From: Escherichia phage AV123
Direction: 5' to 3' (one strand)
Sequence record: OR352953.1
DNA length: 64,000 nucleotides
The translations under genes and the position numbers were made by a program. Below, in pieces: positions 1-46,895 of this stretch; the first letter of the stretch is position 1; each line of letters starts with the position of its first letter. The notes under the pieces were generated by a model that was not told the origin of the DNA, searched no databases, and worked only from the letters and a program-made list of their open reading frames with translations.

Positions 1-64
1 CAAGGTGCAATATAAACTGTCAAAAGATTATGATTTTACTTTGACATTTATTTCATAAAACCGC

Positions 65-125
65 TTGCAATACTGCAAAAATAAAGTAAACTGTATTCAT
101 CAAGGCGGTGGAATAGCCCACCGCC
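65..125 (+). promoter_or_regulatory. putative early promoter followed by 5' GC hairpin (ggcggtgg-aatagc-ccaccgcc, ~104-125)
   Basis: TTGCAA/TAAACT-like hexamers; perfect 8-bp stem hairpin ~23 nt upstream of ATG 149; same architecture as downstream cassettes. Confidence 0.35.
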
Positions 126-148
126 TAACAAAGAGAAGAGGAAACATC

Positions 149-319
149 ATGATCACTTTCGCTACCCGTGAAGCCGCTCGCAACGTTGCACGTAAAGTTA
201 ACGCCGCCAACCTGGGCGCTACGCTTAAAGCCCCGGTAAAAGATGAATCAGGTAAATGGATCTTCCCTGGTCTGCGTCACGCTGATAAGCTGGGAACGTT
301 AACGCTAAAAAATAAATAA
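149..319 (+). CDS. hypothetical small early protein (56 aa)
   Basis: in-frame internal start of track ORF 65..319; AAGAG-type RBS after hairpin. Confidence 0.5.
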   Translation: MITFATREAARNVARKVNAANLGATLKAPVKDESGKWIFPGLRHADKLGTLTLKNK

Positions 320-326
320 AATCCGC

Positions 327-385
327 TTGACAGTAGCATCATTTATAAGTAAAGTAACAACAACGGCGGGAAATGGTTTCCCGCC
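327..385 (+). promoter_or_regulatory. early promoter-hairpin cassette (-35 TTGACA 327-332, -10 TAAAGT, hairpin GGCGGGAAA-TGG-TTTCCCGCC 365-385)
   Basis: sigma70-like hexamers with 17-nt spacer; 9-bp perfect stem starting ~10 nt after -10; followed by AAAGAG RBS and ATG 406. Confidence 0.55.
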
Positions 386-405
386 ATCAATAAAGAGATA
401 AGATC

Positions 406-765
406 ATGAAATCAGTAAAAGCAATTAAAACTTACATTGTGTCGGCTATTTCTTTTGATGGTACTACAACCGAAAAAGAAAAGATCACCGAACTGATGCG
501 CCGTTTTAACTCTGAATACTGGTATCCCGATAATCAAAAACGTTACAATTATAACGTGATCAAGGCGATAGCCTCATGGTTACAAGGTTTACCGTCAGAC
601 ATTAACATCGCCTTTGATTATAACGAGATTGATCATTTATTAATTGAATGGAAGTACATAAAAGAAACAAGCAAAGAAACAACCGTTACCCGTGAGCGGG
701 AAAATTATTGGTTATATATTGCAAGCATGATCGTAATCCTGGCAAAACAGCATAACGTGGCGTAA
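406..765 (+). CDS. hypothetical protein (119 aa)
   Basis: track ORF; preceded by promoter-hairpin-RBS cassette. Confidence 0.6.
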   Translation: MKSVKAIKTYIVSAISFDGTTTEKEKITELMRRFNSEYWYPDNQKRYNYNVIKAIASWLQGLPSDINIAFDYNEIDHLLIEWKYIKETSKETTVTRERENYWLYIASMIVILAKQHNVA

Positions 766-780
766 TTAAGAGGAAGAAAC

Positions 781-918
781 ATGAACGCATCACAGCAGAT
801 CGAAAAATTCAACCGCAGCAAGGCGCGTAAAGATTGGAACGAAGAGATCACCAAAAAAGGCGACAAGCGGAACAAAACAAAGAGAGATCGCAGCACAAAA
901 AGATACTGGAACGAATAA
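781..918 (+). CDS. hypothetical small basic protein (45 aa)
   Basis: ATG 781 with AAGAGGAAG RBS; K/R-rich; immediately followed by terminator. Confidence 0.4.
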   Translation: MNASQQIEKFNRSKARKDWNEEITKKGDKRNKTKRDRSTKRYWNE

Positions 919-923
919 CAAAA

Positions 924-947
924 AAGGGCGCAATAAGCGCCCTTTTA
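924..947 (+). terminator. rho-independent terminator (GGGCGC-AATAA-GCGCCC + TTTT)
   Basis: GC stem and T-tract directly after stop at 918. Confidence 0.6.
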
Positions 948-1037
948 GCTTATATAGAGGCTTGTTACCCATAGGCAATGGTAACGCCAGGATAAGCCTA
1001 TAAATCAACGTTAGACGGCTTTACAGGAGCTTTAAAA

Positions 1038-1220
1038 ATGAAATTAGACGAAATAAGCAAGGCACTAGCCCAGGGGCAAAGGTTATGCGCCCGATATCGT
1101 GATCAATATGGCTTCATAACTAGCGGCGTGATCCTGGGGATTGAAGGCAATAAGATTTTTATTGACACGTTGAAAAACGTTGTATATAGTGACAATATAA
1201 TCTCAATAAAACATATATGA
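1038..1220 (+). CDS. hypothetical protein (60 aa)
   Basis: track ORF; CAGGAG RBS upstream. Confidence 0.5.
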   Translation: MKLDEISKALAQGQRLCARYRDQYGFITSGVILGIEGNKIFIDTLKNVVYSDNIISIKHI

Positions 1221-1228
1221 GGCAAGAA

Positions 1229-1630
1229 ATGAAAAAATTATTGATCGCTGGTTTAATCTCTTTTGGCATGGTTGGAACATCTAGCGCGGCGATATCCTCC
1301 ACAGTAGCAGAATTAAGCGCCGTTGATGCAATGGAAAACGTCATGCTTATTAATAATGCGATCCCCGATGAAATCATGGAGGATTCACACATGATCGCTT
1401 ATGGTGCTGTTACACAACTAACGGCAAAAATAGATAAATCTATTGTTAACGGCTTAAATGAAGATGTGCCATGTGAAATTATTACCAGTGTGCTGACTAC
1501 TCAAAATTTTACGCCGTGGTTAAAAAGTATTCAAAAAGTACACAGTACAGCCGCAGATCGTAGCAATGAAAAACTAGTGTCAGCACTTGCAACGTATACC
1601 CTAGCAAAATGCACCGAGATAAAAGATTGA
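1229..1630 (+). CDS. hypothetical secreted/periplasmic protein with N-terminal signal peptide (133 aa)
   Basis: MKKLLIAGLISFGMVGTSSAA signal-like N-terminus; in-frame start inside track ORF 1217..1630. Confidence 0.55.
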   Translation: MKKLLIAGLISFGMVGTSSAAISSTVAELSAVDAMENVMLINNAIPDEIMEDSHMIAYGAVTQLTAKIDKSIVNGLNEDVPCEIITSVLTTQNFTPWLKSIQKVHSTAADRSNEKLVSALATYTLAKCTEIKD

Positions 1631-1677
1631 CAACATAGAAAGCACGTTATAAGATACACACAACAAAGGAGAACTAC

Positions 1678-1980
1678 ATGAACGGCATAGCTAAAACGTT
1701 TTTTCTTTTTTCTGGTGTAAATGATCCATCAATAAAAGTCGATAGTGTAAAAGAAAACAATACTATCACCGCTAAATTGTTTCAAGATGAAACAAATAAC
1801 GTGCTAATCATTAATCTTAAAGAAATAACGAAAGGTTATTATACTATTGCTTACCATGCAATCTATCGTGCTGGTACTAGTGAGGAAGTGCAAACAAGCA
1901 ACAACGAAAGCGCGGCACTACCTGGTGATCTGGTGCTGGGCGTTATCAGTTTAATTGTCAATGATTTTTTTAAGGAGTAA
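1678..1980 (+). CDS. hypothetical protein (100 aa)
   Basis: track ORF; AAGGAG RBS. Confidence 0.55.
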   Translation: MNGIAKTFFLFSGVNDPSIKVDSVKENNTITAKLFQDETNNVLIINLKEITKGYYTIAYHAIYRAGTSEEVQTSNNESAALPGDLVLGVISLIVNDFFKE

Positions 1981-1984
1981 AACC

Positions 1985-2080
1985 ATGCCCTATTTACATT
2001 TATTTTTCGGTATCTTATTGACAGGATCTTTTTTCTTCTGTATGCTTGTTTCTATTGTAAACCACGTTTTAAGACATTAA
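1985..2080 (+). CDS. small hydrophobic membrane peptide (31 aa)
   Basis: ATG 1985 with AAGGAG 8 nt upstream; MPYLHLFFGILLTGSFFFCMLVSIV is a single TM-like segment. Confidence 0.35.
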   Translation: MPYLHLFFGILLTGSFFFCMLVSIVNHVLRH

Positions 2081-2089
2081 GGAAACAGC

Positions 2090-2209
2090 ATGAAAATTAT
2101 TCCCGTACAATATAGCGTAATAAATCCAGCATACGAGGAAGGAAGGAAAACAAGCATGGCTTTATGTTGTATTGCTACTATAGCCATGTTGTTATACATT
2201 GTGTTTTAA
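2090..2209 (+). CDS. small membrane peptide (39 aa)
   Basis: ATG 2090 with AAGGAAACAG RBS-like; hydrophobic C-terminus. Confidence 0.35.
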   Translation: MKIIPVQYSVINPAYEEGRKTSMALCCIATIAMLLYIVF

Positions 2210-2309
2210 TAGGTTTTATAGTTGTACGCTTTAAAGGCTTGACAATTTTTTGTTATGCTTTAAACTATATCTTGAAAACGGCAAAGGCCGCAAACAAAAG
2301 GGTAAAATT

Positions 2310-2633
2310 ATGAAATCTGTGATCGGTGTTTATTTGGATAACTCTGATTTTTTCTATCATCGCGCGCGTTTACTTGATGCTATTGAAATGATAGAATCAG
2401 GCTTTAAAGAGTATCGCCTTGCACATGATGACCTGGAAGCATTACAGGGCAATAGTGTTTTTACATTGCAAGCGAAAGCACTATGCAAAAGCCGGATCGA
2501 GATTGCAAGTAAAAAGATACAACGCGGCATGTCCTGGTTGCGCACCGCAGAAATCAACATGGGGCAATGGTACGGCGAAAACTTAGAAAATAAACGCACT
2601 TTTGTAAATGTAGAAAATCTTAAAGATTATTGA
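2310..2633 (+). CDS. hypothetical protein (107 aa)
   Basis: in-frame internal ATG of track ORF 2250..2633; TTGACA promoter-like hexamer upstream. Confidence 0.5.
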   Translation: MKSVIGVYLDNSDFFYHRARLLDAIEMIESGFKEYRLAHDDLEALQGNSVFTLQAKALCKSRIEIASKKIQRGMSWLRTAEINMGQWYGENLENKRTFVNVENLKDY

Positions 2634-2695
2634 TTGACAGCACACCTAACAGATAGTATATTGTATCTCATAGAGCGGGGAAATGGTTTCCCCGC
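2634..2695 (+). promoter_or_regulatory. early promoter-hairpin cassette (-35 TTGACA 2634-2639, -10 TATATT, hairpin GCGGGGAAA-TGG-TTTCCCCGC 2675-2695)
   Basis: 17-nt spacer; hairpin nearly identical to 365-385. Confidence 0.55.
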
Positions 2696-2715
2696 CTTAA
2701 CAGAAGAGATAAGCT

Positions 2716-3000
2716 ATGAAGATCACAAAAGCACTTTCCAACTATGCAGCACGTCGCGGATTATGTTTAACCGTTGAAAATTTAGGGAAAGAAGATTTTT
2801 TGTGCTTTTGGGAGCTTGAGAATGATAATGAGTGGATCTTCTCTTATTCTATCTGCGAAGATCAAAACGGTTGTTTATTAACCTGGCGCGGTAATATCTA
2901 TCTACCGGAAGAAATCAAAGAAGAATTACCAGGCACGATCATGACTGAGAAACAGCTTAAGGAAGTGATCAATTTTGTAGGGCAAAACATTAAAAAATAA
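2716..3000 (+). CDS. hypothetical protein (94 aa)
   Basis: track ORF; cassette upstream. Confidence 0.6.
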   Translation: MKITKALSNYAARRGLCLTVENLGKEDFLCFWELENDNEWIFSYSICEDQNGCLLTWRGNIYLPEEIKEELPGTIMTEKQLKEVINFVGQNIKK

Positions 3001-3001
3001 T

Positions 3002-3061
3002 TTGACACTAGGCAAACAACGTAGTAAAGTTTATCACATAGGGCGGGAAATGGTTTCCCGC
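3002..3061 (+). promoter_or_regulatory. early promoter-hairpin cassette (-35 TTGACA 3002-3007, -10 TAAAGT, hairpin GGCGGGAAA-TGG-TTTCCCGC 3042-3061)
   Basis: same hexamers, spacing and hairpin as other cassettes. Confidence 0.55.
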
Positions 3062-3084
3062 TCACAACAGAAGAGAAACAAATC

Positions 3085-3255
3085 ATGATCCCAACTATGT
3101 TTTATGTATCGCGCAAAGGTCACAATATTTTTTGGTCTGAAGATTTAAATGAAGCCATGACGTTTGCCCGTGATCGTGTTGCTATCGGTGGCGTTAACAT
3201 TACTGTAACCGATGAAAACGGCATTGAATACTATAACGGCGACGATGAAGAGTAA
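3085..3255 (+). CDS. hypothetical protein (56 aa)
   Basis: ATG 3085 after cassette and AGAAGAG RBS-like; below the 60-aa cut-off of the ORF track. Confidence 0.5.
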   Translation: MIPTMFYVSRKGHNIFWSEDLNEAMTFARDRVAIGGVNITVTDENGIEYYNGDDEE

Positions 3256-3262
3256 TTAATAA

Positions 3263-3283
3263 GGCGGGGGAGTATTCCCCGCC
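3263..3283 (+). promoter_or_regulatory. intercistronic GC hairpin (GGCGGGGGA-GTA-TTCCCCGCC) without recognisable promoter
   Basis: perfect inverted repeat between stop 3255 and ATG 3303. Confidence 0.45.
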
Positions 3284-3302
3284 GTCAATAAAGAGGTAAA
3301 TC

Positions 3303-3572
3303 ATGAAAATATCTTTGGACGTTGCAATCAAGGCCATTGAATCCGGTTACACCCTGGTAAAAGATGATAAGGCTAAAACCGTGCACCACGTTAACAAGGA
3401 AACAGGCGAAAGCATGATCACATATAAAACCGCCTATTTTCTCCAATCAGTAGCAGATCCGCGCGTACAACGCCAGGTTACGGCGGCTATTGCTAAAAAA
3501 TTATGTGCTTTACAGGGTACAAGTTTTAACGAGATCGCCCCGTGTTTTGACTGGTCGAGCTTGAAAAAATAG
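3303..3572 (+). CDS. hypothetical protein (89 aa)
   Basis: track ORF; AAAGAGG RBS. Confidence 0.6.
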   Translation: MKISLDVAIKAIESGYTLVKDDKAKTVHHVNKETGESMITYKTAYFLQSVADPRVQRQVTAAIAKKLCALQGTSFNEIAPCFDWSSLKK

Positions 3573-3573
3573 T

Positions 3574-3629
3574 TTGACAACAATTATAAATCGGGTAGAA
3601 TGTATTTCGTAGGGCGGCAATAGTGCCGC
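3574..3629 (+). promoter_or_regulatory. early promoter-hairpin cassette (-35 TTGACA 3574-3579, -10 TAGAAT, hairpin GCGGCA-ATAG-TGCCGC 3614-3629)
   Basis: sigma70-like hexamers; hairpin variant. Confidence 0.5.
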
Positions 3630-3652
3630 TCACAACTAAAAGAGAAATCAGC

Positions 3653-3847
3653 ATGGCGCTTAAAAAACTAACAAGCAATACTCGTTGGGATGAAATCGAC
3701 GGAGAAGTTTACATTTTCGCCCGTAAACCAGGTGATCAAAAATGGTCTAAGGCTTTTACTTGCCACCCTGCAACAATAGACCTGATAAAAAGGGAAGGTT
3801 TACGTGAAGCGGTAGCAAGAAGTTTACTGATCCCTTATAAAAAATAG
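3653..3847 (+). CDS. hypothetical protein (64 aa)
   Basis: in-frame ATG inside track ORF 3623..3847, placed after the hairpin and AAAAGAG RBS. Confidence 0.55.
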   Translation: MALKKLTSNTRWDEIDGEVYIFARKPGDQKWSKAFTCHPATIDLIKREGLREAVARSLLIPYKK

Positions 3848-3910
3848 TTTGACAATACGCGGTTATCTGGTAAAGTGTACGACATAGGGCGGGGCAATAA
3901 GGCAACGCCC
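3848..3910 (+). promoter_or_regulatory. early promoter-hairpin cassette (-35 TTGACA 3848-3853, -10 TAAAGT, imperfect GC hairpin 3887-3910)
   Basis: hexamers with 17-nt spacer; GGGCG...CGCCC stem. Confidence 0.45.
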
Positions 3911-3928
3911 ATTAATGAGGGTAGAATC

Positions 3929-4033
3929 ATGTTAGAGAAAATTTTCACGGTTGTAATAGTTGGCCTGGCGTTATCGGTTGGATTGGTTGCAACTATGGCT
4001 AACATGATCCTATCTTCCCACGGTATTGGATAA
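3929..4033 (+). CDS. small membrane peptide (34 aa)
   Basis: ATG 3929 after GAGGG RBS-like; MLEKIFTVVIVGLALSVGLVATMANMIL is hydrophobic. Confidence 0.4.
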   Translation: MLEKIFTVVIVGLALSVGLVATMANMILSSHGIG

Positions 4034-4043
4034 GGTGAATCAA

Positions 4044-4259
4044 ATGATCACGAATAAGACAGGTAAAACAGAATTTTTACGCGGCTTGCAAATAGGTAAA
4101 CCTGAGATCTGGCATTGCACTAAATCCGCGCATAATGAAATGAAAGATTTTACCGCTACTTTACAACGTGTTAAAATATCTATCACGCAGAAAAAAGCCT
4201 TGTTAGTAGTAGAAAACGAGATACCGCAAACCATTATTATTGTCGAGCGTACAGCATGA
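4044..4259 (+). CDS. hypothetical protein (71 aa)
   Basis: in-frame ATG of track ORF 4026..4259 with AAGGTGA RBS. Confidence 0.5.
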   Translation: MITNKTGKTEFLRGLQIGKPEIWHCTKSAHNEMKDFTATLQRVKISITQKKALLVVENEIPQTIIIVERTA

Positions 4260-4642
4260 AAACTGAAATCATTATTGAAATCATCAACGGTTATAAAGAA
4301 GCCTTTATTTTTGCTGAATCAGCCAGGGATCATGAAGGCTATTTTATTGATAACTTAGACGATTATGATTTTTCAGATCAAGCCCATCAGCGGATCATTC
4401 ATGACGTAGCGGCTTATTGTGATGCCAATGATGCTGCTATCTCTGAGGCAATGAGCGACGGCGCTACAGCAAACCAGATCGGGAATGATTTACATTTTAC
4501 CCGTAACGGTCACGGCGTAGGCTTTTGGGATCGCCCTGAAATATACACTACTAACACCGCCAACCGCCTAACAAATGCAGCTAAATTAATGCCATCGGTG
4601 CATGCTTACATTGGTGAAGATAATTTGATTTATATTGAATAA
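4256..4642 (+). CDS. hypothetical acidic protein (128 aa)
   Basis: track ORF; ATGA start/stop overlap with upstream gene. Confidence 0.55.
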   Translation: MKTEIIIEIINGYKEAFIFAESARDHEGYFIDNLDDYDFSDQAHQRIIHDVAAYCDANDAAISEAMSDGATANQIGNDLHFTRNGHGVGFWDRPEIYTTNTANRLTNAAKLMPSVHAYIGEDNLIYIE

Positions 4643-4648
4643 AAAGTA

Positions 4649-4707
4649 TTGACACCGATCCCCAATATGTTATTATTTACCACGTAGGCGGGAAATGGTT
4701 TCCCGCC
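4649..4707 (+). promoter_or_regulatory. early promoter-hairpin cassette (-35 TTGACA 4649-4654, -10 TATTAT, hairpin GGCGGGAAA-TGG-TTTCCCGCC 4687-4707)
   Basis: hairpin identical to 365-385. Confidence 0.55.
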
Positions 4708-4730
4708 AGGTAATCAAAAAGGTAAATACT

Positions 4731-5120
4731 ATGCGCAACCTGGTTTCTGTTTCTAACGTTGAAAAATTCCAATCTTTACAGGGTATCGTTAACAACGTAG
4801 CGCCTTTTTTAGTCAATGGCTTGATTGCAAAGATGAAAAATAAACATCATGCGGCATGGTCTGCTTACTGCTTTGATAATGATGAAAAAGCGGCTGAAAT
4901 GATGTTAAATATGCTGTTAGACAGTGTAGAATCATCTTTACCGGAAAACATCGCAGAAGAGATCACCTATCGTTATAATATGGCGATCACTTACCAGGAG
5001 GTTGCGCAATTTAATATGATGGATGATGACGAACAACAGGATCAGGAAATGTTCTGGGAGTATGCAGATCGTCAATCGGCTTTTGATGAAAAGTTAGCGA
5101 TGTATTATAACGAATATTAA
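4731..5120 (+). CDS. hypothetical protein (129 aa)
   Basis: in-frame ATG of track ORF 4695..5120 located after the hairpin. Confidence 0.55.
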   Translation: MRNLVSVSNVEKFQSLQGIVNNVAPFLVNGLIAKMKNKHHAAWSAYCFDNDEKAAEMMLNMLLDSVESSLPENIAEEITYRYNMAITYQEVAQFNMMDDDEQQDQEMFWEYADRQSAFDEKLAMYYNEY

Positions 5121-5133
5121 TACACGGTAAAAG

Positions 5134-5162
5134 AAAGGGGCGCACTAAGCGCCCTTTTTTGT
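5134..5162 (+). terminator. rho-independent terminator (GGGCGC-ACTAA-GCGCCC + TTTTTT)
   Basis: GC stem plus T-run after stop 5120; same family as 924-947. Confidence 0.65.
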
Positions 5163-5504
5163 ATTCTTTTTCACAATGGAAGCGACACGTAAAGAATAGG
5201 CGTAAAGGTGGCGTAAAACCATCTAAAACCGACTGTAACCGCTTAAACAAGGTAGGAATGATTAATCACCTTACCAGGATGAAAAAGCTGTTATAAAGCT
5301 ATCTAGAGCGTTTAAAGCACATAGGAAATAATTTGCTTTTTATCTTGCCTTTTATCCTGCTTTTGATTATTATTATGGAACGGGCGGCACCTGGGGACAG
5401 GGGAAGATAATCACCGGAAGATCCCGCTATATATTAATAGCTAATACCTATCAAACAACAAAACATCAAAGGAATAAACTATCAAATCTTTACAATCCTA
5501 CCTA

Positions 5505-5564
5505 TTGACACCGGATCGCCCTTATACTAAGATGTATCACGTAAGGCGGGAAGTGGTTTCCCGC
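5505..5564 (+). promoter_or_regulatory. early promoter-hairpin cassette (-35 TTGACA 5505-5510, -10 TAAGAT, hairpin GGCGGGAAG-TGG-TTTCCCGC 5545-5564)
   Basis: same architecture as other cassettes. Confidence 0.55.
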
Positions 5565-5583
5565 TCAATATAGGAATCATATC

Positions 5584-5814
5584 ATGATCGAACAAATTAA
5601 ACGCGCTGAAGCTATTAACGGCAATGTGATCTATTCTGTCAGCAATAACGAAAAAGGCGTACCCTATGCAGCGGTGATAGTACAGCCTGACGGTGATTAT
5701 TGGTTTACTGTATACGGATCTTATTCTTTTGGGCGTCCAGTACATGATAAAATTTTGAAAGTAGCTAATCCCACTGGGAAGAATATCACAGTAGAAAAAT
5801 TTTTTGAAAAATAA
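5584..5814 (+). CDS. hypothetical protein (76 aa)
   Basis: track ORF after cassette. Confidence 0.6.
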   Translation: MIEQIKRAEAINGNVIYSVSNNEKGVPYAAVIVQPDGDYWFTVYGSYSFGRPVHDKILKVANPTGKNITVEKFFEK

Positions 5815-5889
5815 CTTGCTTTATAGCCTCTGTTAACTTATAGTTATCGTGTAGGGCAAACAATTTTAAACGGTAAACGAGGAATCACC

Positions 5890-6273
5890 ATGAGCAATAT
5901 CATCAACCTGGCGGCTACTGTAAACGGTAAAGACTTTAACGGCGCTGTAGACCGTGATCCTATGTGGTGCTTGTCAGTGTTTAAAGGTGACTTGGTTGAA
6001 GTTAGAACAACCGAAGGGTATAGCGATGATTATAAATGCGAGATCCATTTACACAACTGGTACACGGGTAAAACTTATGCACTGAATCATGCGTTTATCG
6101 GCAAGGTTGAATATAGAGAAATGATCGACGAAGAAACGGGGCAAGATTTTAGCGAGCATGTTTATATTCGTTCAGAAACATTAGCCGAACGTTTGATCGA
6201 GAAAATGAAAGCAAAAAATAAAATTAATTTATCTCATTGGATTGATATAACAAACGATCCAGCTTATCAGTAA
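5890..6273 (+). CDS. hypothetical protein (127 aa)
   Basis: track ORF; GAGGAA RBS. Confidence 0.6.
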   Translation: MSNIINLAATVNGKDFNGAVDRDPMWCLSVFKGDLVEVRTTEGYSDDYKCEIHLHNWYTGKTYALNHAFIGKVEYREMIDEETGQDFSEHVYIRSETLAERLIEKMKAKNKINLSHWIDITNDPAYQ

Positions 6274-6287
6274 ATAACATTTCAAAC

Positions 6288-6316
6288 AAGGGCGCTTATT
6301 GCGCCCTTTCTTTTTA
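6288..6316 (+). terminator. rho-independent terminator (AGGGCGC-TTATT-GCGCCCT + TTTCTTTTT)
   Basis: GC stem plus T-run; third member of the GGGCGC terminator family. Confidence 0.65.
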
Positions 6317-6520
6317 CCTAAATAAAGATGATAGCTTTTACCTATCAAAAACGTTCACCGAAAAAAGTGAATAGATCGCGGTATCGAGCTAATCAAGGAG
6401 CAGATGAACAACCATACCATGAAGATCATAAGGCGCTTACAACGTGTTTTAGACCGCTTATTTTTAATTTCTTCATGTAATTACCTGGCAAAAACAGCCT
6501 TTTTCTTGTCTTTCCTCTTA

Positions 6521-6600
6521 AATGATAATCATTCTTATTTATAGCTGATTATTTATGCAATAAATTGCATAATGCAATAATGAGAATCATTCTTAACTTA
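6521..6600. repeat. direct repeats AATGA(T/G)AATCATTCTTA (x2, ~57 bp apart) flanking palindrome ATGCAAT-AA-ATTGCAT
   Basis: seen directly in sequence; motif resembles Fur-box hexamer arrays. Confidence 0.5.
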
Positions 6601-6974
6601 AGACCATCTAACCTATAAAATAATAAGTTATCTAACTAAATTAAAACTAATTATCTCACCTTTATTTATAACTTACTGTTACTATCTCATTGATAACATT
6701 GTATTAAACAATAATAACTAATATAAATCATTACTAAGCTAAATATAATCTATCTAACCCTTAAAACTACAATTATAATCTATCGAATTGTTGCACAAAG
6801 TAACTATTAAATTGTTAGTAACATTACTAAATAATTCACATCCTATCTATTTATGATCTAATCTTTACCTTCCTATCTATTACTTAGATAATCATTTCAT
6901 ACAGTAACCATTTCATGTAGTAATCATTCCATACAATAACTATAACAAGAAATATAATTCGCAAGCGTATCATT

Positions 6975-7147
6975 AGCAGCCTATGCCGGACACATAGGCG
7001 GCTAATAATAACGCAACTACACACCCCACATAATAACCATCACCGATAGTTATTATTTGTGCTTATGTAGCTTGCAACAATTGCAAGCGCAACAATATAC
7101 TAGGGTATATTGTATCCCTTACATTGTTGCGGTGCGTTATTATTAGC
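6975..7147. other. nested multi-hairpin element (candidate structured ncRNA or replication/packaging element)
   Basis: outer 12-bp pairing TAATAATAACGC (7003-7014) with GCGTTATTATTA (7134-7145) enclosing perfect hairpins ATAATAAC/GTTATTAT, GCTTGCAA/TTGCAAGC and ACAATATAC/GTATATTGT; GCCTATG/CATAGGC hairpin just upstream (6979-6999). Confidence 0.4.
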
Positions 7148-7436
7148 TAATGTTTAGAACATTGGCTATAATATAAGCTATCCAATAATAAACATGGTGA
7201 ATAATGACACTGATGATCATAATGCGCCACCCTCCAGGGGGCGCTATGTGAACACAAAGAAATCTTTCTTGTCAAGAAAAATATCACCATTATTGCGCAA
7301 AATTATTTATATCTGAATAGATGATTTTTCATACTATTGCCCCCTTGATTATTACCATTTGTTGAGCCTACTTTCTTAAAAGCGCAATAAAATAGAATTA
7401 TATTGATTTTTAGTCGGTTTTATAGTACAGAAAGTA

Positions 7437-7458
7437 TGCAAATGATAATCATTATCAG
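7437..7458. promoter_or_regulatory. Fur-box-like operator (AATGATAATCATTATC)
   Basis: 16 contiguous nt identical to the 3' part of the enterobacterial Fur consensus GATAATGATAATCATTATC; related copies at 6521, 6578 and 7624-7654. Confidence 0.3.
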
Positions 7459-7773
7459 CTATCTTCCACGGGTGGCACTATTTCACACCAGATCATTTCA
7501 TTTGGCAAGGTGTATATAGATGTTTAGACTTGCCAAGCCATTGATTTCCTTAGAATTTATCTGTTTTGTTGTGAGTAGTACCTTTCTTGCTTAGAAAATA
7601 ATCAAAAGTCTTATAAGTCATTGAATGATAATACAAATGATAATTATTCTCATTGATATTTGAGGGGGACGGTCGGCAGAAATCGGGGGGTGCTGAAAAT
7701 CGCGTTAAGCACCTCTCGCAAGCGAGCAGTATTTTGCGGCAAGTTATTGATATTATTGACTTTACGCTTATGA

Positions 7774-7881
7774 AAAGGGGGTGTGTCGAAATAAATCGGG
7801 TATACCGGAAAATTTTTGTGGCATAGATATTTATTTGTCTATATTATGTACAAAGGGGTGTGTTAAAAATAATAGGTATAT
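7774..7881. repeat. two ~30-bp direct repeats AAGGGG(G)TGTGT-N-AAATAA-N-GGTATA
   Basis: copies at ~7774-7804 and ~7852-7881 upstream of first gene of next block. Confidence 0.45.
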
Positions 7882-8013
7882 ATAGAATAATTGATAGGGA
7901 ATATCTATACTAATTCCTCCATTAATGATATTCCTATGCTACTGCTCTTGTAATAGATGAAAAGACGCTGTATGATGTGTGGCATGAAACGTAAACTTAT
8001 AAAGGAGTCTGAT

Positions 8014-8379
8014 ATGTGTGTTCCTCTTAGCAGTCCACTGCTGTTAGAATTTTACAAAGCATGGATGCAAGATCATTCCTCAATGCATCGTGAGAATGTT
8101 GGTTTGTGTATTTGCCTTATGGATTATCTGGCAACCACTATGTCAAAGAAAAAACCTACGCGAGAAGATATAGAACATTTCAAAATGGTTCGCAGTAAAA
8201 CGCTGGAAGAGATGAAATTGCAATTCACGTGTGCTGGGCTATCCTCCTTCCTGCCCTTTAATGATGATCTTCTGTGTTATGAAGATGAAGGTAAGAAACA
8301 TTCTTGCCATACTAACCCAGGGAGATTGCAGTGGGTGAAAGACAGACTCGAAGATGCAAATAATGCTTGCATTGAATAG
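8014..8379 (+). CDS. hypothetical protein, paralogue family A (LLxFY ... GLCxCLxDxL ... HPFN ... RxQWVxDR)
   Basis: in-frame ATG of track ORF 7957..8379 with AAGGAG RBS; shares motifs with 10160..10528 and 11152..11736. Confidence 0.55.
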   Translation: MCVPLSSPLLLEFYKAWMQDHSSMHRENVGLCICLMDYLATTMSKKKPTREDIEHFKMVRSKTLEEMKLQFTCAGLSSFLPFNDDLLCYEDEGKKHSCHTNPGRLQWVKDRLEDANNACIE

Positions 8380-37768: not shown

Positions 37769-38090
37769 TTAAATCCTCCACAATATCACACATTGCTTTT
37801 ATTGTATCAATGTGTTCTCTCTCCATACCATTCTCTATGTAAGCCTTCTCTAATGCGTTCCATACACTCTTTGTGAGTAGTACAGTAACCTCTCCCTCAT
37901 ATCTTGCCCTGGTTAAAGCATACCAGGTAGCTTCGGGATCATTGGAAGCCCATATTTCAACACTGGAAAATTGAAAACCTGCAATATGATGACAACACCA
38001 ATCGAATGTAAAATCTTTACTATCTACCAGTGTATAATTGCCCCAACGCCTTTGTGGTGTTGCCCCAGGTAATACAACTAATGTAGGCAT
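37755..38090 (-). CDS. hypothetical protein between nrdA and nrdB (111 aa)
   Basis: internal ATG of track ORF with AAGGAGG RBS. Confidence 0.5.
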   Translation of the reverse strand: MPTLVVLPGATPQRRWGNYTLVDSKDFTFDWCCHHIAGFQFSSVEIWASNDPEATWYALTRARYEGEVTVLLTKSVWNALEKAYIENGMEREHIDTIKAMCDIVEDLNGSN

Positions 38091-38131
38091 ATTCCTCCTT
38101 AAGAAATGGGGGACAAAGCCCCCTAGCTTCA

Positions 38132-40393
38132 TTACATCTTACAAGCCTCACAACCGGATTCTTCATCCTCTTGAGCGAGTGAGGTTGCTGATTTTGTTCG
38201 ACTATTTAGATAGTACAAAGATTTACCACCAAGTTTTGCAAACTGAAGGATATATTGCATTTCTGATTTAATGGATAAACGACCACCTTCCATCTTAGAA
38301 TAGTCAATCCACTTGTCACATGATGCACCTTGATCTAAGAATTTAGTCAACAGTCCATATGCTTCAGCCATATCTTTATCTGGCGTATCCCAAGCCGATT
38401 GGTAAATATCTTTTAGTTTATCGTAATCTGGCACAATAAACAAGACATTACCTTTTTGGCTTTGTTTATAAACTATAGTATCACGTACAGGATACACAGA
38501 GTTAGTCGTATTACTTACAAGACTACTGGACTCATTCGGAGCAATAGCTGCTAATACACTATTTCGGATACCACCTTGTGCAATTATATCTTGTCGTAAA
38601 CCTTCCCAATCCATTTTAAGTTTAAAATTGCCAATATCGTCTACAGCTTTAGCGTAGGTATCAATAGGCAACCATCCTTCAGGCCATTTGGTTTTATGCA
38701 TCCATTCTGCATTACCTTTCTCTTTTGCCAAACGAAGAGAAGCTCTTGCTAACCAGTAATAATGTCTTTCTGCTAATTCGTGAATTAGTTTTTTGCCGTA
38801 AGGATCTGAATAAGTAACAAAATTACTTGCCAGATAATGTGCCAGGTTTGTAATACCTACACCGATAGACCTACGTGCTTTAGCAGTGATTTCGTTATGT
38901 TTAAACGGATACTGCATTGTTTCAATAACATTATCAATAGTTAGAACGGTATAATATGCAACATCTTCATATTCTTCTGGTGTAACACGACCAGCTACAA
39001 TAGAAGACAGGAAACATAATGCCAATTCTTGATCTTCTGTATTCTCACCTGTGAAAAGATCAGTCATACTGTGAAATGCTTTCGTAGGCAAGAAAATTTC
39101 TTGGCACAAGTTTGACTGATAAATAACATCCTTAAACGGAGTATGCTTATTAGCATTATCCGCAAAGAACATATAAATACGTCCTGTCTCTGCTCTTTGT
39201 GTAATAATTTCTGCCAGAAGATCTCGTGCTTTTACAAACTTCTTCTTAATTCGTTTGCGACTAACTTTTTCATATACTTCTTCAAACTCTTCCTCGCTTT
39301 TATAAAGCGCCTCATAGAGTTCTGGTGCTTCGTCATAACTAACTAGCATCCAATCTTTACCTTTTGCTGCACGGCGCAGGAAAGCATTGTTTACTACGAT
39401 AGAGTAATCAAGTTTATCTACTCGTTTTTCACTAACAGTAGTTGGGTTTTTCAAACGTACCAGATCTTCAAAATCAGGTTCTAATATTGTAAACGTTACT
39501 GTTGCACTTCCACCACGACTTGCTTGTTTTGATGCTCCAACACTTGTCTCCATCCATTTCAGATATGGTAAAAGACCACCGTGAACAATACGGTTGTTCT
39601 TAACACCTTGTCCTGTAGCACGGGTTTGGAGGTTAACACCAATACCTGCATTATTCAATGTATATTCATGAGCAAGATAGTTAGCAATTGCTAAAGATTC
39701 TGCTGTATCATCTGCTCTAAACAGACAACAAGAAGCACTACCTTTAATCTTAGTACGCAACGTTGTTAAATAAGGTGATGGTAAATTAATCTTAAGATCA
39801 CTTACGTAGGTATATAGACGTTTAATGTCTTCTACTCTGCGATCTTTTGGTTGGATTTCCATTACCTTCATTGCTACACCAATGAATAAAAATTGTGGTG
39901 ATTCAAAAACCACATCATTGATCGCATCTTTCACAAGATACTTATCAACCATCTGGCGCAGTACGGAATAACCATAAGTTAGGTTTTTATCATGATTGAT
40001 AATTTTACCAATCTCAATAATTTCTTCTTCTGTATAATTCATTTTCCCCCAATAGCCTTTACTTACAGACATATTGTAGAAATCCAGGAGGGAGGGGATA
40101 TTGTGATATCCCCCATGAGCCTGTTTATAGATCATACCAAGAAGTAACCGACCTGCCATATCACTATATGCCTGATCTTTCTTATCAATACATGCTGCTA
40201 TCATAGCTTTATGTAAATCACGAGTAGGCACACCGTCGTAACAACGTTTAACAGCTTCGAGTTCGATTTCAGACCAATTTAATTTACCAGCAGCAAACTC
40301 TGACCATTTACGAAGTTTTTCTGGATTAAATTCTTCTTTCTTGCCGTTTGTTTTTGTTACATAACGGATAGATTTGCTTAGATACTGAGTCAC
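38132..40393 (-). CDS. nrdA: ribonucleotide reductase class Ia alpha subunit (GTG start)
   Basis: 753-aa ORF upstream of nrdB, size typical of class Ia alpha subunit; call rests on size and gene order, no motif checked by eye. Confidence 0.85.
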   Translation of the reverse strand: MTQYLSKSIRYVTKTNGKKEEFNPEKLRKWSEFAAGKLNWSEIELEAVKRCYDGVPTRDLHKAMIAACIDKKDQAYSDMAGRLLLGMIYKQAHGGYHNIPSLLDFYNMSVSKGYWGKMNYTEEEIIEIGKIINHDKNLTYGYSVLRQMVDKYLVKDAINDVVFESPQFLFIGVAMKVMEIQPKDRRVEDIKRLYTYVSDLKINLPSPYLTTLRTKIKGSASCCLFRADDTAESLAIANYLAHEYTLNNAGIGVNLQTRATGQGVKNNRIVHGGLLPYLKWMETSVGASKQASRGGSATVTFTILEPDFEDLVRLKNPTTVSEKRVDKLDYSIVVNNAFLRRAAKGKDWMLVSYDEAPELYEALYKSEEEFEEVYEKVSRKRIKKKFVKARDLLAEIITQRAETGRIYMFFADNANKHTPFKDVIYQSNLCQEIFLPTKAFHSMTDLFTGENTEDQELALCFLSSIVAGRVTPEEYEDVAYYTVLTIDNVIETMQYPFKHNEITAKARRSIGVGITNLAHYLASNFVTYSDPYGKKLIHELAERHYYWLARASLRLAKEKGNAEWMHKTKWPEGWLPIDTYAKAVDDIGNFKLKMDWEGLRQDIIAQGGIRNSVLAAIAPNESSSLVSNTTNSVYPVRDTIVYKQSQKGNVLFIVPDYDKLKDIYQSAWDTPDKDMAEAYGLLTKFLDQGASCDKWIDYSKMEGGRLSIKSEMQYILQFAKLGGKSLYYLNSRTKSATSLAQEDEESGCEACKM

Positions 40394-40404
40394 TTCCTCT
40401 CCTA

Positions 40405-40653
40405 TTAATTGTGCATGTTTAGAACATCTACATCATAACCGCCACGCATCTCATTATATAAGCCATTTGCGTATAGAAAACCTTCAAAATGATCTATACC
40501 TTCAAAACCTTTTGCCTTTGCTTTGCGGTCTGCTTCTTGTCTTTTTGGGGATAATCTTTTAGATGTATCAAGGATAACTGTTACATTGCAACCTAATGTT
40601 TCATCAAAATAGACTTCAATTTCACAGCCTTCATATTTATTACTTTCTGTCAT
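40405..40653 (-). CDS. hypothetical protein (82 aa)
   Basis: ATG (MTESNKYEG) with GAGAGG RBS; track ORF begins at upstream TTG. Confidence 0.45.
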   Translation of the reverse strand: MTESNKYEGCEIEVYFDETLGCNVTVILDTSKRLSPKRQEADRKAKAKGFEGIDHFEGFLYANGLYNEMRGGYDVDVLNMHN

Positions 40654-40665
40654 TTGGCCTCTCAA

Positions 40666-41076
40666 TTAGAATTCAGAATCATCATCTCGTGATGGATCAT
40701 GTTCATTTCCGAAGTCTTCCATTTTGATATGAGAGCTACCCCAACCTGTAAAATCTTCTTCTCCAAAGTGCAAAATATCTACACCTTGATAGATTCGCTT
40801 ATATTTATAGTCTTGTCGAACTGGGAAAGTATACAATGTAGTATTTGCAAACACCACACGTCGATTGTTGTTACTACGAATATTAACACCACGTTCTACT
40901 GTATAATGTCCATCGGTAGACATACCAAGCATTACTAATGCTGCTCTCAATGTAGTGTTATGATACTCGTGAGGAATTTTTCCTCCGTGCTTTTTAGCCA
41001 TTTCTTTCCAGATCGGTGTAGCCTTAATGGTAGACATACTTACGGTCGCCCAAATGGTTGTATTAATTAGTGACAT
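40666..41076 (-). CDS. hypothetical protein (136 aa)
   Basis: track ORF. Confidence 0.5.
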   Translation of the reverse strand: MSLINTTIWATVSMSTIKATPIWKEMAKKHGGKIPHEYHNTTLRAALVMLGMSTDGHYTVERGVNIRSNNNRRVVFANTTLYTFPVRQDYKYKRIYQGVDILHFGEEDFTGWGSSHIKMEDFGNEHDPSRDDDSEF

Positions 41077-41173
41077 AAATTCTCCTTCTCTCTTTTAAGG
41101 AGAGCATAGCTCTCCTAACGTTAGCCTATACTACACGAATCTCAATTAAAAGTCAACTATAATTTTAAGTTGA

Positions 41174-42145
41174 TCACCATTTTGTATGGTTAGTCAAAAG
41201 TTGACGATGTTGAATCCAACCACAGAAGTTTCCACTCCACAAACGATGTTTACGATCCATATGTGTAATACCTTCTTCCCAAGAAGTAGGGAACGGAGGA
41301 ATATTAATACCACCTTTCTGTTGTTTTAATCCTGACAAATCCATTTCTTTCATTGGTGTTGCCTGGTGTTCAAACGGAGATGCATGTACCTTCTGTCCAG
41401 ACAGCAAACGAGAATAGATATCCAATGCTTTATCTTTAGTATCATTCAATTTACGATAACTTACCTGAGCGCAACAAGAAGCTGAGATAGCTTTTGCTTC
41501 ATCTTCTGTCAACATTTTCTCGTTGGAGAAGGTTTCACCCAAGAAATAACGGATCATACCAGTTTCTGGATCTCGATCACGATTAACGTAAGGTGTATGC
41601 CATTCCCCTGGGAAAAGAAGATATGGTTCAGAAGATTCATACAATTTTTTAATTTCTTTAGCAAGAGCCTCAATAGTAGGATCTGCATCAGCATCTACGC
41701 GCAACCACAAGAAGTTTTCTAGCTCTGTAGTGGTTACTACAGTCTTCATACGCTGGAATGGTTCTAGTAGGCGGTTTGCAACCTGTTTATGATAACCAGC
41801 AAGGGCAAACTCTTCTGCAAAACGTGCAGCACTTAGCGCAGCCAAGTCCCACCATTCTTTTGCAGTGTAACCTGCATCAATCAGGGCATCGTGATCTGTG
41901 CCTTTATCTTGCATACCTGGTTGGTTAGCACCAAAACGATAAGGACGTGCTGGAGATTGCCGTACCATTTCAATTAGAGTTTTAACAGGGATAGCTCGAC
42001 TTGATGCGGCATTACGAGAAAACAAACGATGCGTCATCAATTCAGAGTGAATGATTCGAGGATATTCAAGTTCAAAGGTAACAATATCCTTACCTTCAGA
42101 TGTTTGAGAGTGTGCAATAATTTTTGCTGAAATAGAATTTGTCAT
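41174..42145 (-). CDS. thyX: flavin-dependent thymidylate synthase
   Basis: THRLFSRNAASSRA matches ThyX RHRxxxxxxxS signature region. Confidence 0.65.
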   Translation of the reverse strand: MTNSISAKIIAHSQTSEGKDIVTFELEYPRIIHSELMTHRLFSRNAASSRAIPVKTLIEMVRQSPARPYRFGANQPGMQDKGTDHDALIDAGYTAKEWWDLAALSAARFAEEFALAGYHKQVANRLLEPFQRMKTVVTTTELENFLWLRVDADADPTIEALAKEIKKLYESSEPYLLFPGEWHTPYVNRDRDPETGMIRYFLGETFSNEKMLTEDEAKAISASCCAQVSYRKLNDTKDKALDIYSRLLSGQKVHASPFEHQATPMKEMDLSGLKQQKGGINIPPFPTSWEEGITHMDRKHRLWSGNFCGWIQHRQLLTNHTKW

Positions 42146-42154
42146 TATTTCTCC

Positions 42155-42745
42155 TTAAGGTAGTAAAATACTTTCAATTTCTTCCCACTGATTATCTAAA
42201 CCAGTGATAATTACATTAGGAAGTTTCTTTAACTCTTCCAAGTATGGATCTTCGTAAATAGTGTTGAAATATATTTTCAACGTTTCATCTGGAAATAGGA
42301 CAAGATTTTCAGCCCTATCGTCAATAGTTACGTCGCAAGGTAATAAGTATTTTTCTTTTGTTGCGAAAAAGCCATTACCAGATGTTCTACTAAAGTCCAC
42401 TTTATCTAAAGATCGTGTTACGTGTCTATATTTAGAACTAAGGTGTCCACCCTTAGTGTGGCTTGCTATAGATATATTAGCTCCATTTGCAATTATACGA
42501 TGAACAACATCTGTACTATTAGGTACTACTCCCATAGTATCATATAGATGTTGGTTATCCCAAAAAGAGTAAGGATCTACACCAAATTGCTTTTTAAAAT
42601 CAGGAAAATATTTCGTAATATCATAATGCACAGTCTTTTGTGTCTTATCAAACTTGATATTAGATCTACTTACCGCATTTAACCAACTCAACCATTCTAC
42701 ATCGGCAGGGGCTATTACTAAATCCCAATCACATACTAGACGCAT
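42155..42745 (-). CDS. HAD-superfamily 5'(3')-deoxyribonucleotidase-like protein, tentative
   Basis: internal ATG with CAGGAG RBS; N-terminal DxD (CDWDLV) and C-terminal TIDDR motifs. Confidence 0.35.
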   Translation of the reverse strand: MRLVCDWDLVIAPADVEWLSWLNAVSRSNIKFDKTQKTVHYDITKYFPDFKKQFGVDPYSFWDNQHLYDTMGVVPNSTDVVHRIIANGANISIASHTKGGHLSSKYRHVTRSLDKVDFSRTSGNGFFATKEKYLLPCDVTIDDRAENLVLFPDETLKIYFNTIYEDPYLEELKKLPNVIITGLDNQWEEIESILLP

Positions 42746-43292
42746 TATTTCTCCTGTTATAACATTTTCTACACATTGTTTCGTAAATGTCTTCTCCTCC
42801 AATAACAATCTGTTCTTTAGAGTCGATAAGTCTAGCATTGAAAATAGCTTTTCTTCCACATTTACAAATGCTTTTCAATTCTGTAATTGAATCTGCTATG
42901 GCTAATAACCGTTCAGAACCTTCAAACAATTCTGTAGCAAAATCTGTTTTAAGCCCATAACAGAATACAGGAATATCGTAATTATCTACCACATCTCCAA
43001 GAATGTCAACCATATCTTTAGTTAGGAATTGTGATTCGTCCACAAATACTGCATCTACTGGATTTTCTTTAAGTTGTGTATAAATTTCCAGCATATCTTC
43101 TTTTGTTTTAACTGGTTTTGCTTCCTCTTTAATACCTATCCTAGAAGCAATAGCACAACCAGATCTGGTATCTAAAGCTGAAGTTAAAAGAAGAACTTTC
43201 ATATTTCTTTCTTTATAGTTCCAAGCTGTTTGTAGCAGATGTGTGCTTTTACCACTGTTCATCGGACTATATCGGAAATAAAGTTTAGCCAT
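42729..43292 (-). CDS. tdk: thymidine kinase
   Basis: SPMNSGKST P-loop and C-terminal CxxC zinc motif. Confidence 0.85.
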   Translation of the reverse strand: MAKLYFRYSPMNSGKSTHLLQTAWNYKERNMKVLLLTSALDTRSGCAIASRIGIKEEAKPVKTKEDMLEIYTQLKENPVDAVFVDESQFLTKDMVDILGDVVDNYDIPVFCYGLKTDFATELFEGSERLLAIADSITELKSICKCGRKAIFNARLIDSKEQIVIGGEDIYETMCRKCYNRRNNASSM

Positions 43293-43337
43293 ATTTTCTC
43301 CTCTAACGCTCCCATTTGTGGGAGCGATAATACTTTA

Positions 43338-43913: not shown

Positions 43914-44097
43914 TAGTGCTCACCTTTTTAGCTACATAATCTCCTGGTGGAATGTTATATTTAAAGAAAAGCATACGGTCTAAACCAGCCTTACACATGT
44001 TTTCTGGGATTGTGATTGTATATAAGAGTTTATCTCCACGTTTATTGTATATTTTATATACTTCACCCTCTCCGTATTGTTTACCGTGAGAAGCCAT
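43903..44097 (-). CDS. hypothetical protein (64 aa)
   Basis: track ORF. Confidence 0.4.
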   Translation of the reverse strand: MASHGKQYGEGEVYKIYNKRGDKLLYTITIPENMCKAGLDRMLFFKYNIPPGDYVAKKVSTIGK

Positions 44098-44482: not shown

Positions 44483-44497
44483 AAATCCTCCAAAAAT

Positions 44498-44520
44498 AAA
44501 GGGGCTTTCGCCCCTTTTTT
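44498..44520 (-). terminator. intergenic GC hairpin AAAGGGGCTTTCGCCCCTTTTTT (terminator-like)
   Basis: third copy of the same hairpin; T-runs on both sides. Confidence 0.55.
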
Positions 44521-44521
44521 A

Positions 44522-46515: not shown

Positions 46516-46607
46516 TTGATCGTAGTCTATTGCAAGAATTGTGTTCTCGTCAACATATTTGTGCAGGTCTTCCGGTTGGATTAAAATGTAACCGCTAATA
46601 TTACCTC

Positions 46608-46820: not shown

Positions 46821-46895
46821 TGGTGTGTCTCCTTAAAAGCCCACCTAACTAAGTAGGTAGGCATATTAACACATATTAAATTAGTAAGTCAAGTA

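Follow-up and report, generated by a model that had tools for sequence, protein, structure and literature searches.

A portable promoter and 5'-proximal hairpin cassette in the putative early-gene array of a phi92-like Escherichia phage

The first 6.3 kb of a 64,000-nucleotide stretch of Escherichia phage AV123 (OR352953.1; the whole stretch is referred to as the window) raise the question why small genes on one strand are preceded, again and again, by nearly the same promoter and the same GC-rich hairpin. In an original prediction at least eight such genes had been described in positions 1-6316, and the hairpin had been proposed to stabilise the mRNA, to bind a protein or to provide homology for cassette shuffling. 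On balance, we lean towards reading the locus as a 'hyperplastic' array of early genes in a phi92-like phage, with a portable expression cassette of about 85 nt that carries a 5'-proximal RNA hairpin as its building unit. Positions 1-6400 were 99.8% identical to Escherichia phage vB_EcoM_ESCO9 (OM386654, 37242-43641, minus strand) and 95-99% identical to about 50 further Justusliebigvirus (phi92-like) phages. While 206 phage records matched some part of this segment, only 45 reached a coverage of at least 80%. A one-strand array of small ORFans, about 9-10 kb long, has its distal two thirds in the segment 1-6316; it starts about 3.6 kb upstream of window position 1 (ESCO9 38,077-47,219) and holds six more cassettes there in ESCO9, outside the stretch on which the original prediction was based. 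About two dozen small genes of unknown function are carried by the array, and the family hairpin is repeated before about 14 genes of one genome. In phi92 the counterpart is the one-strand block gp225-gp248, whose end is about 1.1 kb short of the right direct terminal repeat. Ten array proteins were scanned, nine of which matched PHROGs of unknown function only and one of which had no match; the only Pfam family above cut-off was T4 gp30.8, for the last array gene.

The full module comprises TTGACA, 16-17 nt, TAnnnT, 10-12 nt, a GC hairpin of 20-24 nt, 18-23 nt with a Shine-Dalgarno (SD) sequence, and ATG. Allowing at most three mismatches, the consensus hairpin GGCGGGAAANNNTTTCCCGCC was found five times (365, 3042, 3263, 4687 and 5545), always within 1-6316 and with no match expected in shuffled sequences. 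A 21-nt variant (2675-2695) and three divergent members (103-126, 3612-3631 and 3887-3910) were also present, so that the description as five near-identical copies plus variants held. Promoter, hairpin and SD together precede eight genes (ATG at 149, 406, 2716, 3085, 3653, 3929, 4731 and 5584), in agreement with the predicted number, the first of them with a weaker -35 (TTGCAA); one further gene (ATG 3303) is preceded by the hairpin but by no promoter. The family hairpins were predicted to fold with -12.8 to -18.7 kcal/mol (z -2.2 to -4.75), and SD and ATG were predicted to be unpaired in most family leaders. Among the promoter elements, exact TTGACA occurs 12 times on the plus and twice on the minus strand of 1-6316, and TTGACA-N16-18-TAnnnT sites were found 11 times on the plus strand and never on the minus strand, compared with 18 on both strands of the other 57.7 kb.

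All units from C0 to C8 lie on the plus strand; E-values given for them refer to a covariance model (CM) described below. C0 (65..151) consists of the weak -35 (65-70), the -10 TAAACT (87-92), a hairpin at 103-126 (AGGCGGTGG-aatagc-CCACCGCCT; -18.7 kcal/mol, z -4.75; weak match, E 0.47), an SD and the ATG at 149. In C1 (327..408) the -35 (327-332) and -10 (350-355) are followed by the hairpin GGCGGGAAATGGTTTCCCGCC at 365-385 (E 4.5e-10), the SD AAAGAG and the ATG at 406, and in C2 (2634..2718) the -35 (2634-2639) and -10 (2657-2662) by the hairpin at 2675-2695, the SD AGAAGAG and the ATG at 2716 (E 1.1e-8). C3 (3002..3087; E 1.8e-11) has its -35 at 3002-3007, its -10 at 3025-3030, a hairpin with one G.U pair at 3041-3063 and its ATG at 3085. 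The promoterless C4 (3256..3305; E 2.2e-6) has its hairpin (3263-3283) right behind the upstream gene's stop codon and continues with an SD and the ATG at 3303. C5 (3574..3655; E 0.0027) comprises a -35 at 3574-3579, a -10 at 3596-3601, the hairpin GGGCGGCAATAGTGCCGCTC at 3612-3631 and the ATG at 3653. The two-part hairpin of C6 (3849..3931; -35 3849-3854, -10 3871-3876, hairpin 3887-3910, ATG 3929) was missed by the model and folds with -16.8 kcal/mol (z -4.08). C7 (4649..4733; E 3.1e-8) has its -35 at 4649-4654, its -10 at 4671-4676, its hairpin at 4687-4707 and its ATG at 4731, and C8 (5505..5586; E 7.9e-11) follows with 5505-5510, 5528-5533, a hairpin with two G.U pairs at 5545-5565 and an ATG at 5584. 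Directly before TTGACA, C3, C5, C6 and C7 share AAAAAATA(A/G)T, and the A/T-rich stretch upstream of the promoter holds the stop codon of the upstream gene, as is characteristic of the promoter-early stem-loops (PeSLs) considered at the end. For the C7 gene the ESCO9 record gives an ATG at 4695, inside the hairpin, and the Paula record gives 4731 with an SD at the usual distance; the longer ESCO9 gene call is probably wrong.

The CM was built from 35 units and run on the window and on the whole ESCO9 genome (145 kb). All matches with E<0.01 lay in the array and on the gene strand, and a marginal match at ESCO9 69,725 (E 0.036) was a promoter-hairpin unit with an unrelated stem. Accordingly, a hairpin scan of the 145-kb ESCO9 genome found GGCGG-type hairpins nowhere outside the array. 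The cassette was present in phi92, in phAPEC8 and tuntematon (Phapecoctavirus), in Mangalyan (Vequintavirus), in Av-05 and 24-2-1 (Avunavirus) and in A73, with 138 matches over all phages, 100 of them distinct. Rfam 15 contained no matching family and returned only a sub-threshold chance match on the terminator at 906-951. A search of IMG/VR with two hairpin 20/21-mers yielded few contigs, mostly of about 97-153 kb, and the motif was not seen in unrelated phage groups if three single matches on contigs of 36-61 kb are left out. Outside the array, the order promoter, GC hairpin, SD and ATG also occurs with unrelated hairpins at window positions of about 41156-41075, 29504, 43354 and 46892 (all minus strand) and at ESCO9 69739 (plus strand); one example reads TTGACT-17-TAGTAT-10 nt-TAGGAGAGCTATGCTCTCCTTA, and at 43354 and 46892 the hairpin begins directly after the -10.

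The geometry of the leader was counted over 56 distinct leaders. The hairpin begins 10-12 nt after the -10 in 42 of them (range +6 to +14, mode +10) and lies 17-28 nt before the ATG (median 20.5, interquartile range 19-22); even the promoterless C4 keeps a hairpin-ATG spacing of 19 nt. Downstream of the -10, conservation was observed for C at position 7 (40/56), a purine at 8 (53/56), T at 9 (41/56) and A at 10 (42/56). Usual rules of start-site choice place the start at the purine 8 nt after the -10, and the RNAs are accordingly predicted to begin with AU or GU. Because the hairpin starts 10-12 nt after the -10 in 75% of the leaders, it should be transcribed from its own promoter, and its position in the transcribed leader is supported in outline by these predicted starts. 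This part of the suggestion that the hairpin sits at the extreme 5' end of each transcript stood, but the word extreme was an overstatement: in minimum-free-energy folds the predicted unpaired 5' tail measured 3-4 nt in 32 of 56 leaders, 0-2 nt in 16 and at least 5 nt in eight.

What is kept in the hairpin is pairing rather than sequence. Family stems have 6-10 bp and loops of 3-7 nt. In a CM alignment of the 100 distinct copies from five phage groups 89% of the cells were paired, with changes on both sides in seven of nine pairs, and the covariation score of 0.326 was reached by none of 500 shuffles (0.160) and compares with 0.05-0.15 for slid partners. Plain MAFFT alignments of the units (A1 and A3) were discarded; there the 3' arms were out of register and RNAalifold gave five pairs with a covariation term near zero. 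Among orthologous hairpins, defined as those before the same downstream gene, inspection of the main stems by eye found four compensatory double changes, about eight exchanges between Watson-Crick and G.U pairs and no A.C. Examples are GAC..GTC in Av-05 versus GGC..GCC in 24-2-1, GGGGAGAG..CTCTCCCC versus GGGGCAAG..CTTGCCTC, and AGGGCGG.. versus GGGGCGG... An automated ortholog count, which was noisy, gave 14 exchanges between Watson-Crick and G.U, two A.C and five other mismatches.

The loops differ (TGG, ATAG, TAG, GTA, ACAAG and ATTGA), and in three cases between near-identical phages the loop was inverted with identical flanks: TAG/CTA, ATAG/CTAT and, in the C0 hairpin, its entire centre. 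The first two read AAGCGGGAA-TAG-TTCCCGCTT versus -CTA- and GGGCGGCA-ATAG- versus -CTAT-, and the sites are window 103-126, L013:1741, L016:2985, L016:5801 and L018:664 (L numbers denote the compared phage records). Terminator loops, too, are mutually inverse (AATAA at window 926, TTATT at 6290). The loop inversions suggest a palindrome-mediated flip-flop at the DNA level. As judged from these variants, the stem is constrained, whereas the sequence and orientation of the loop are not. Covariation, wobble tolerance and loop inversion thus agree with a hairpin of the ompA type, in which pairing and not sequence counts; they speak of conservation, not of effect. Taken together, the comparisons of primary sequence showed a cassette family, its restriction to the array and the sense strand, a fixed geometry, and pairing conserved over sequence.

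Moreover, the cassettes are places at which relatives differ in gene content. BLAST of the array (about 11 kb) against 13 relatives gave 80 distinct homology breakpoints, 40 of which fell within cassettes; these occupy 12.9% of the reference (p about 1e-15, whole-sequence null). The breakpoints were scattered over the entire cassette, including -35, spacer, hairpin and SD, with no single site. The clearest junction is found in phi92, which lacks window 3079-3563 with two genes and carries a chimeric cassette exactly there: its left parent is C3, with which it agrees up to TTATCACATAGGGCGG, its right parent is C5, with which it agrees from TAGGGCGGCAATAG on, and the crossover lies in TAGGGCGG at the hairpin base. 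ESCO8 and W22 contain extra genes at C0, C6 and C8, with cassette sequence duplicated on both sides. In rV5-like phages, which belong to another subfamily, single array genes were 86-93% identical and differently ordered; gene order was permuted in the Vequintavirus Mangalyan, and the same gene stood behind different hairpin types in different phages. At the level of aligned genomes, recombination between cassettes was thus shown to add, remove and reorder genes. The suspicion that this block is a mobile or shuffling module was therefore well founded, and relatives do link the hairpins to gene gain and loss, as seen at the phi92 junction and in the breakpoint enrichment. Since cassettes are 60-85% alike and offer identical cores of 20-25 nt every 0.3-1 kb, they would act as sites of homologous exchange. 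This would explain the widely differing ORFan content of the array region between otherwise near-identical phages, a variability that matters for finding host-takeover and anti-defence genes. A separate deletion of about 3.7 kb in JLBYU50 (window 2312/6066) does not end in cassettes; a dozen or so array genes are gone and the phage is viable, so that it can do without them, at least on E. coli K-12.

Besides the cassettes, the array contains five promoters without a family hairpin, all on the plus strand. Those at 1162..1190 (within the 3' end of the preceding open reading frame, ORF), 1627..1655 (with a short unstructured leader to ATG 1678) and 2018..2046 (TTGACA, 17 nt, TATGCT, upstream of a small ORF at 2090) are consensus-like. 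The fourth (2239-2266, unit 2239..2312) precedes a 4-bp mini-hairpin at 2279-2290, which is not significant (z -1.3), and ATG 2310. The fifth belongs to a degenerate cassette (5816..5892) before the gp30.8-like gene (ATG 5890), with a weak -35 TTGCTT, the -10 TATAGT at 5839-5844 and a GTAGGGC remnant in place of the hairpin. Intrinsic terminators were found at 922..946 (acting in both directions, AAAAGGGCGC-aataa-GCGCCCTTTT), at 5132..5160 (plus strand, GGGGCGC-actaa-GCGCCC followed by TTTTTT) and at 6288..6308 (plus strand, ending the array, with a loop inverse to that at 926). The 64 kb contain exactly three copies of GGGCGC-N5-GCGCCC (926, 5138 and 6290), each with a T-run, which confirms the separate terminator family that had been proposed for this block. 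A distinct ribosome-binding-site flavour had been proposed as well: based on crude ORF calls, AGAG-type SDs without a GGAG/AGGA core were indeed enriched (4/15 array genes versus 1/114 elsewhere), but eight of the 15 array genes have ordinary SDs.

How might such a cassette work? It opens with an A-rich stretch in which the upstream stop codon lies, followed by a near-consensus sigma-70 promoter, a conserved start region (C-R-U-A-G), a GC hairpin of 6-10 bp placed about 3-4 nt after the predicted start, an unstructured A-rich SD linker of 18-23 nt and the ATG. Each gene would be transcribed early by the host RNA polymerase, and the hairpin of the nascent RNA would form a sequence-independent 5'-proximal structure. 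Together with the initiating ribosome that abuts it, the hairpin would leave almost no naked leader RNA, and 5'-end-dependent decay by RppH and RNase E could be slowed. The ribosome-binding site would at the same time be insulated from the upstream context, so that any ORF behind the cassette would be expressed. We infer for the hairpin a function as mRNA stabiliser or insulator; the stabiliser role appears plausible from the predicted leaders. RppH and RNase E are known to require at least two unpaired 5' nucleotides and to prefer at least three, and for RppH a pyrimidine at +2 is unfavourable (PMC8833179). The conserved U at +2 of the predicted RNAs would further disfavour RppH.

Several points weigh against this explanation. 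Given the needs of RppH and RNase E for unpaired nucleotides, a tail of 3-4 nt would allow only partial protection, and the protection by a 5' hairpin may be weak, as RNase E scanning passes ordinary stem-loops (PMC9943677). One hairpin stands without a promoter and five promoters stand without a hairpin, so that neither part strictly needs the other. The fixed distances may stem partly from common descent of the cassettes. Likewise, the alignment used for covariation was one fitted to the structure, and its copies are related by descent, which makes it support and not proof. A pooled comparison of G.T with A.C over 47 distinct hairpins, in which several extensions were artefacts, was not significant (11 versus 5, p 0.21). 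The breakpoint enrichment shrinks to a modest level when the null is limited to intergenic sequence, with about 70% observed versus about 50% expected as an estimate for the window part, and the end of a BLAST match gives a crossover point only approximately. Finally, no transcriptome or map of transcription start sites of these phage groups was found in the literature, and start sites, timing and RNA structure are predictions.

Other explanations give the hairpin a different task. In a role as described for classical PeSLs it would attenuate or terminate read-through from upstream, and each gene would be expressed mainly from its own promoter. A PeSL stem-loop of RB49 reduces a downstream lacZ about as much as rrnB T1 (PMC2839356), the C4 hairpin stands between two genes without a promoter, and because strong promoters follow one another in tandem and the 6.3 kb hold just three canonical terminators, the dosage would otherwise accumulate downstream. 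However, only 0-2 T are found in the 9 nt after sense-strand family hairpins, compared with six after the true terminators at 5132 and 6288, and the lack of a following U-tract indicates that the family hairpins are not intrinsic terminators; canonical terminators with hairpin and T-run are used in the same region. The RB49 stem-loop, moreover, lies within the promoter and is not transcribed from it, whereas a hairpin downstream of its own promoter would also act on its own transcripts. We regard attenuation as unlikely. Alternatively, a phage or host protein could bind the palindrome specifically, as DNA (an operator at +4 to +24) or as an RNA tag, and in this way switch the whole early set off or on. 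Several copies identical over 21-23 nt, the strong conservation of the GGCGG/CCGCC core and the start region across genera, and a position just after +1 that is typical of roadblock repressors all fit such a site. Yet stem differences are compensated (GGCGGGAAA, GGGCGGCA, GGGGAGAG and GACGGGGAG), the variable loop length alters the spacing of half-sites, loops invert between near-identical phages, unrelated hairpins hold the same position at other promoters, and no candidate regulator was identified. Because the stem is constrained and the loop is free, a loop-reading protein and a DNA operator of fixed spacing are both disfavoured, and the protein-binding operator of the original prediction is improbable, slightly more so than attenuation. 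In a related form, start region and hairpin together would be a shared 'regulon tag', read on RNA or DNA by a dedicated phage factor or a hijacked host factor, which would time stability, translation or shut-off for some 14-24 early genes at once. We give this idea a slim chance only; if it were true, a captured ORF would be wired straight into the early programme, and the cassettes would amount to a capture-and-express system of the integron type, by which single genes pass between two phage subfamilies.

The hairpin might also have no role in expression at all and be a recombination site at the DNA level or a selfish palindrome that spreads with the cassettes through site-specific or hairpin-mediated exchange, possibly via mini-circles. 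Such mini-circles are formed by PeSLs in RB49 and phi1 (PMC2839356), the crossover of the phi92 chimera falls at the hairpin base, and the loop inversions show palindromes to be active at the DNA level. This is nevertheless quite doubtful, and a shade more so than the regulon tag, because the breakpoints spread over the whole cassette and not over one site, and because G.U-tolerant or compensatory changes and fixed distances to -10 and ATG point to a constraint at the level of RNA or expression. Public records contain further labels: phAPEC8 has 'putative promoter determined with PHIRE', and Paula labels the hairpins 'terminator', four of five on the gene-free strand. That the 20-mers are phage-specific promoters or opposite-strand terminators is hardly credible. 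No phage RNA polymerase is annotated among the 255 ESCO9 features, a statement about annotation only, and a consensus sigma-70 promoter always precedes the motif by 10-12 nt; the opposite strand has no genes, and T-runs there are weak (3-4/9). The 'PHIRE promoter' and minus-strand 'terminator' labels are probably wrong and tool artefacts, and correcting them removes misleading entries from public records.

Further candidates were rejected. An N4-type hairpin promoter was dismissed on the same annotation of ESCO9, and a boxB/nut antitermination site because its loop must be conserved, whereas the loops here vary and are inverted in three cases. RNase III sites were excluded at stems of 6-10 bp, which are too short for this enzyme. 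An SD-sequestering thermometer or riboswitch disagrees with the predicted folds, in which the SD is unpaired, and the hairpin as a block to RNase E scanning was dropped, since orthogonal stem-loops are easily bypassed.

Some observations concern the surroundings of the array. The phi92 genome end, including its 343-bp right terminal repeat, aligns to window 6274-7707 at 93%, so that the window spans a physical genome end; the terminal repeat is expected at about 7365-7707, and the early array points towards this end. No convincing genes were seen in window 6320-8200, a long stretch rich in AT (32.5% GC). This stretch contains a 29-nt repeat with the palindromic core AATGATAATCATT in four copies (6520, 6578, 7440 and 7635) as well as other short repeat families, and may be an origin, packaging or terminal-region element. 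Fifteen tRNA genes, including two each for Met, Leu and Ser, are clustered at 59145-62200 on the plus strand.

Similar arrangements are known from other systems. Emory, Bouvet and Belasco (1992) and Bricker and Belasco (1999) reportedly described 5'-terminal stem-loops that stabilise the E. coli mRNAs ompA and papA. By analogy, the cassette likewise places a sequence-independent hairpin near the 5' end before the ribosome-binding site, and protection against RppH and RNase E would be expected; unlike the ompA and papA stem-loops, the array hairpin is predicted to lie usually 3-4 nt from the 5' end and not flush with it, and belongs to a repeated family. The Bacillus phage SPO1 is said (Stewart et al. 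1998) to possess a host-takeover module of about two dozen small early genes beside the genome terminus, in which each operon has a strong host-type promoter and a strong ribosome-binding site. Host and lineage differ, however, and no conserved family of 5' hairpins is known from that module. The lambda-type nut/boxB and HK022 put sites are RNA hairpins just downstream of early promoters as well; their action needs a specific loop or stem sequence and is directed at downstream termination, whereas in the array the loops are variable and can be inverted, and few terminators are present that would have to be overridden.

The closest counterparts are the PeSLs of RB49/phi1, PST/T4 and nt-1/KVP40 (Arbiol et al. 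2010, PMC2839356; Comeau et al. 2014, PMC4122927), and the comparison with such T4-type elements in the original prediction was apt in this sense. Both are repeated intergenic units of less than 100 nt in a hyperplastic region with small ORFans, both consist of an A/T-rich stretch with a stop, a sigma-70-like early promoter, a G-run/C-run stem-loop, an SD and an ATG, and in both recombination between units explains indels and replacements between relatives. The comparison failed in anatomy, as the classical stem-loop sits inside the promoter, namely in the -35/-10 spacer or over the -10 and more rarely upstream of the -35 or immediately ahead of the start site (PMC2839356). In RB49, the stem-loop starts relative to the -10 end at -24, filling the spacer, in seven units, at -13 to -17, straddling the -10, in five and at +9 in one, whereas the array hairpin starts in most leaders at +10 to +12 and is part of its own transcript. 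A 50-kb part of RB49 that holds its PeSLs showed no homology to the CM (best E 0.07, partial hairpin only), and the phages considered here belong to Stephanstirmvirinae and Vequintavirinae and are not T4-like. Mangalyan carries at 2686, 3306, 3640 and 7048 a second repeat whose hairpin GATGGCCTTGACnCCAGGGCCATC encloses the -35 hexamer; it is nearer to the classical PeSL arrangement and stands beside the type with the downstream hairpin. No description of the cassette in these lineages was found in the literature, including the rV5 paper. The idea of PeSLs as regulatory cassettes that double as recombination sites is thereby extended to coliphages of both subfamilies, many members of which are therapy candidates. 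As a second design with the hairpin in the mRNA leader, the cassette offers a compact natural part of promoter, 5' hairpin and ribosome-binding site, and dozens of natural variants could be used to study effects of 5'-proximal structure on mRNA life and translation. The array element is a PeSL-like analogue with a different anatomy, distinguished by its transcribed 5'-proximal hairpin.

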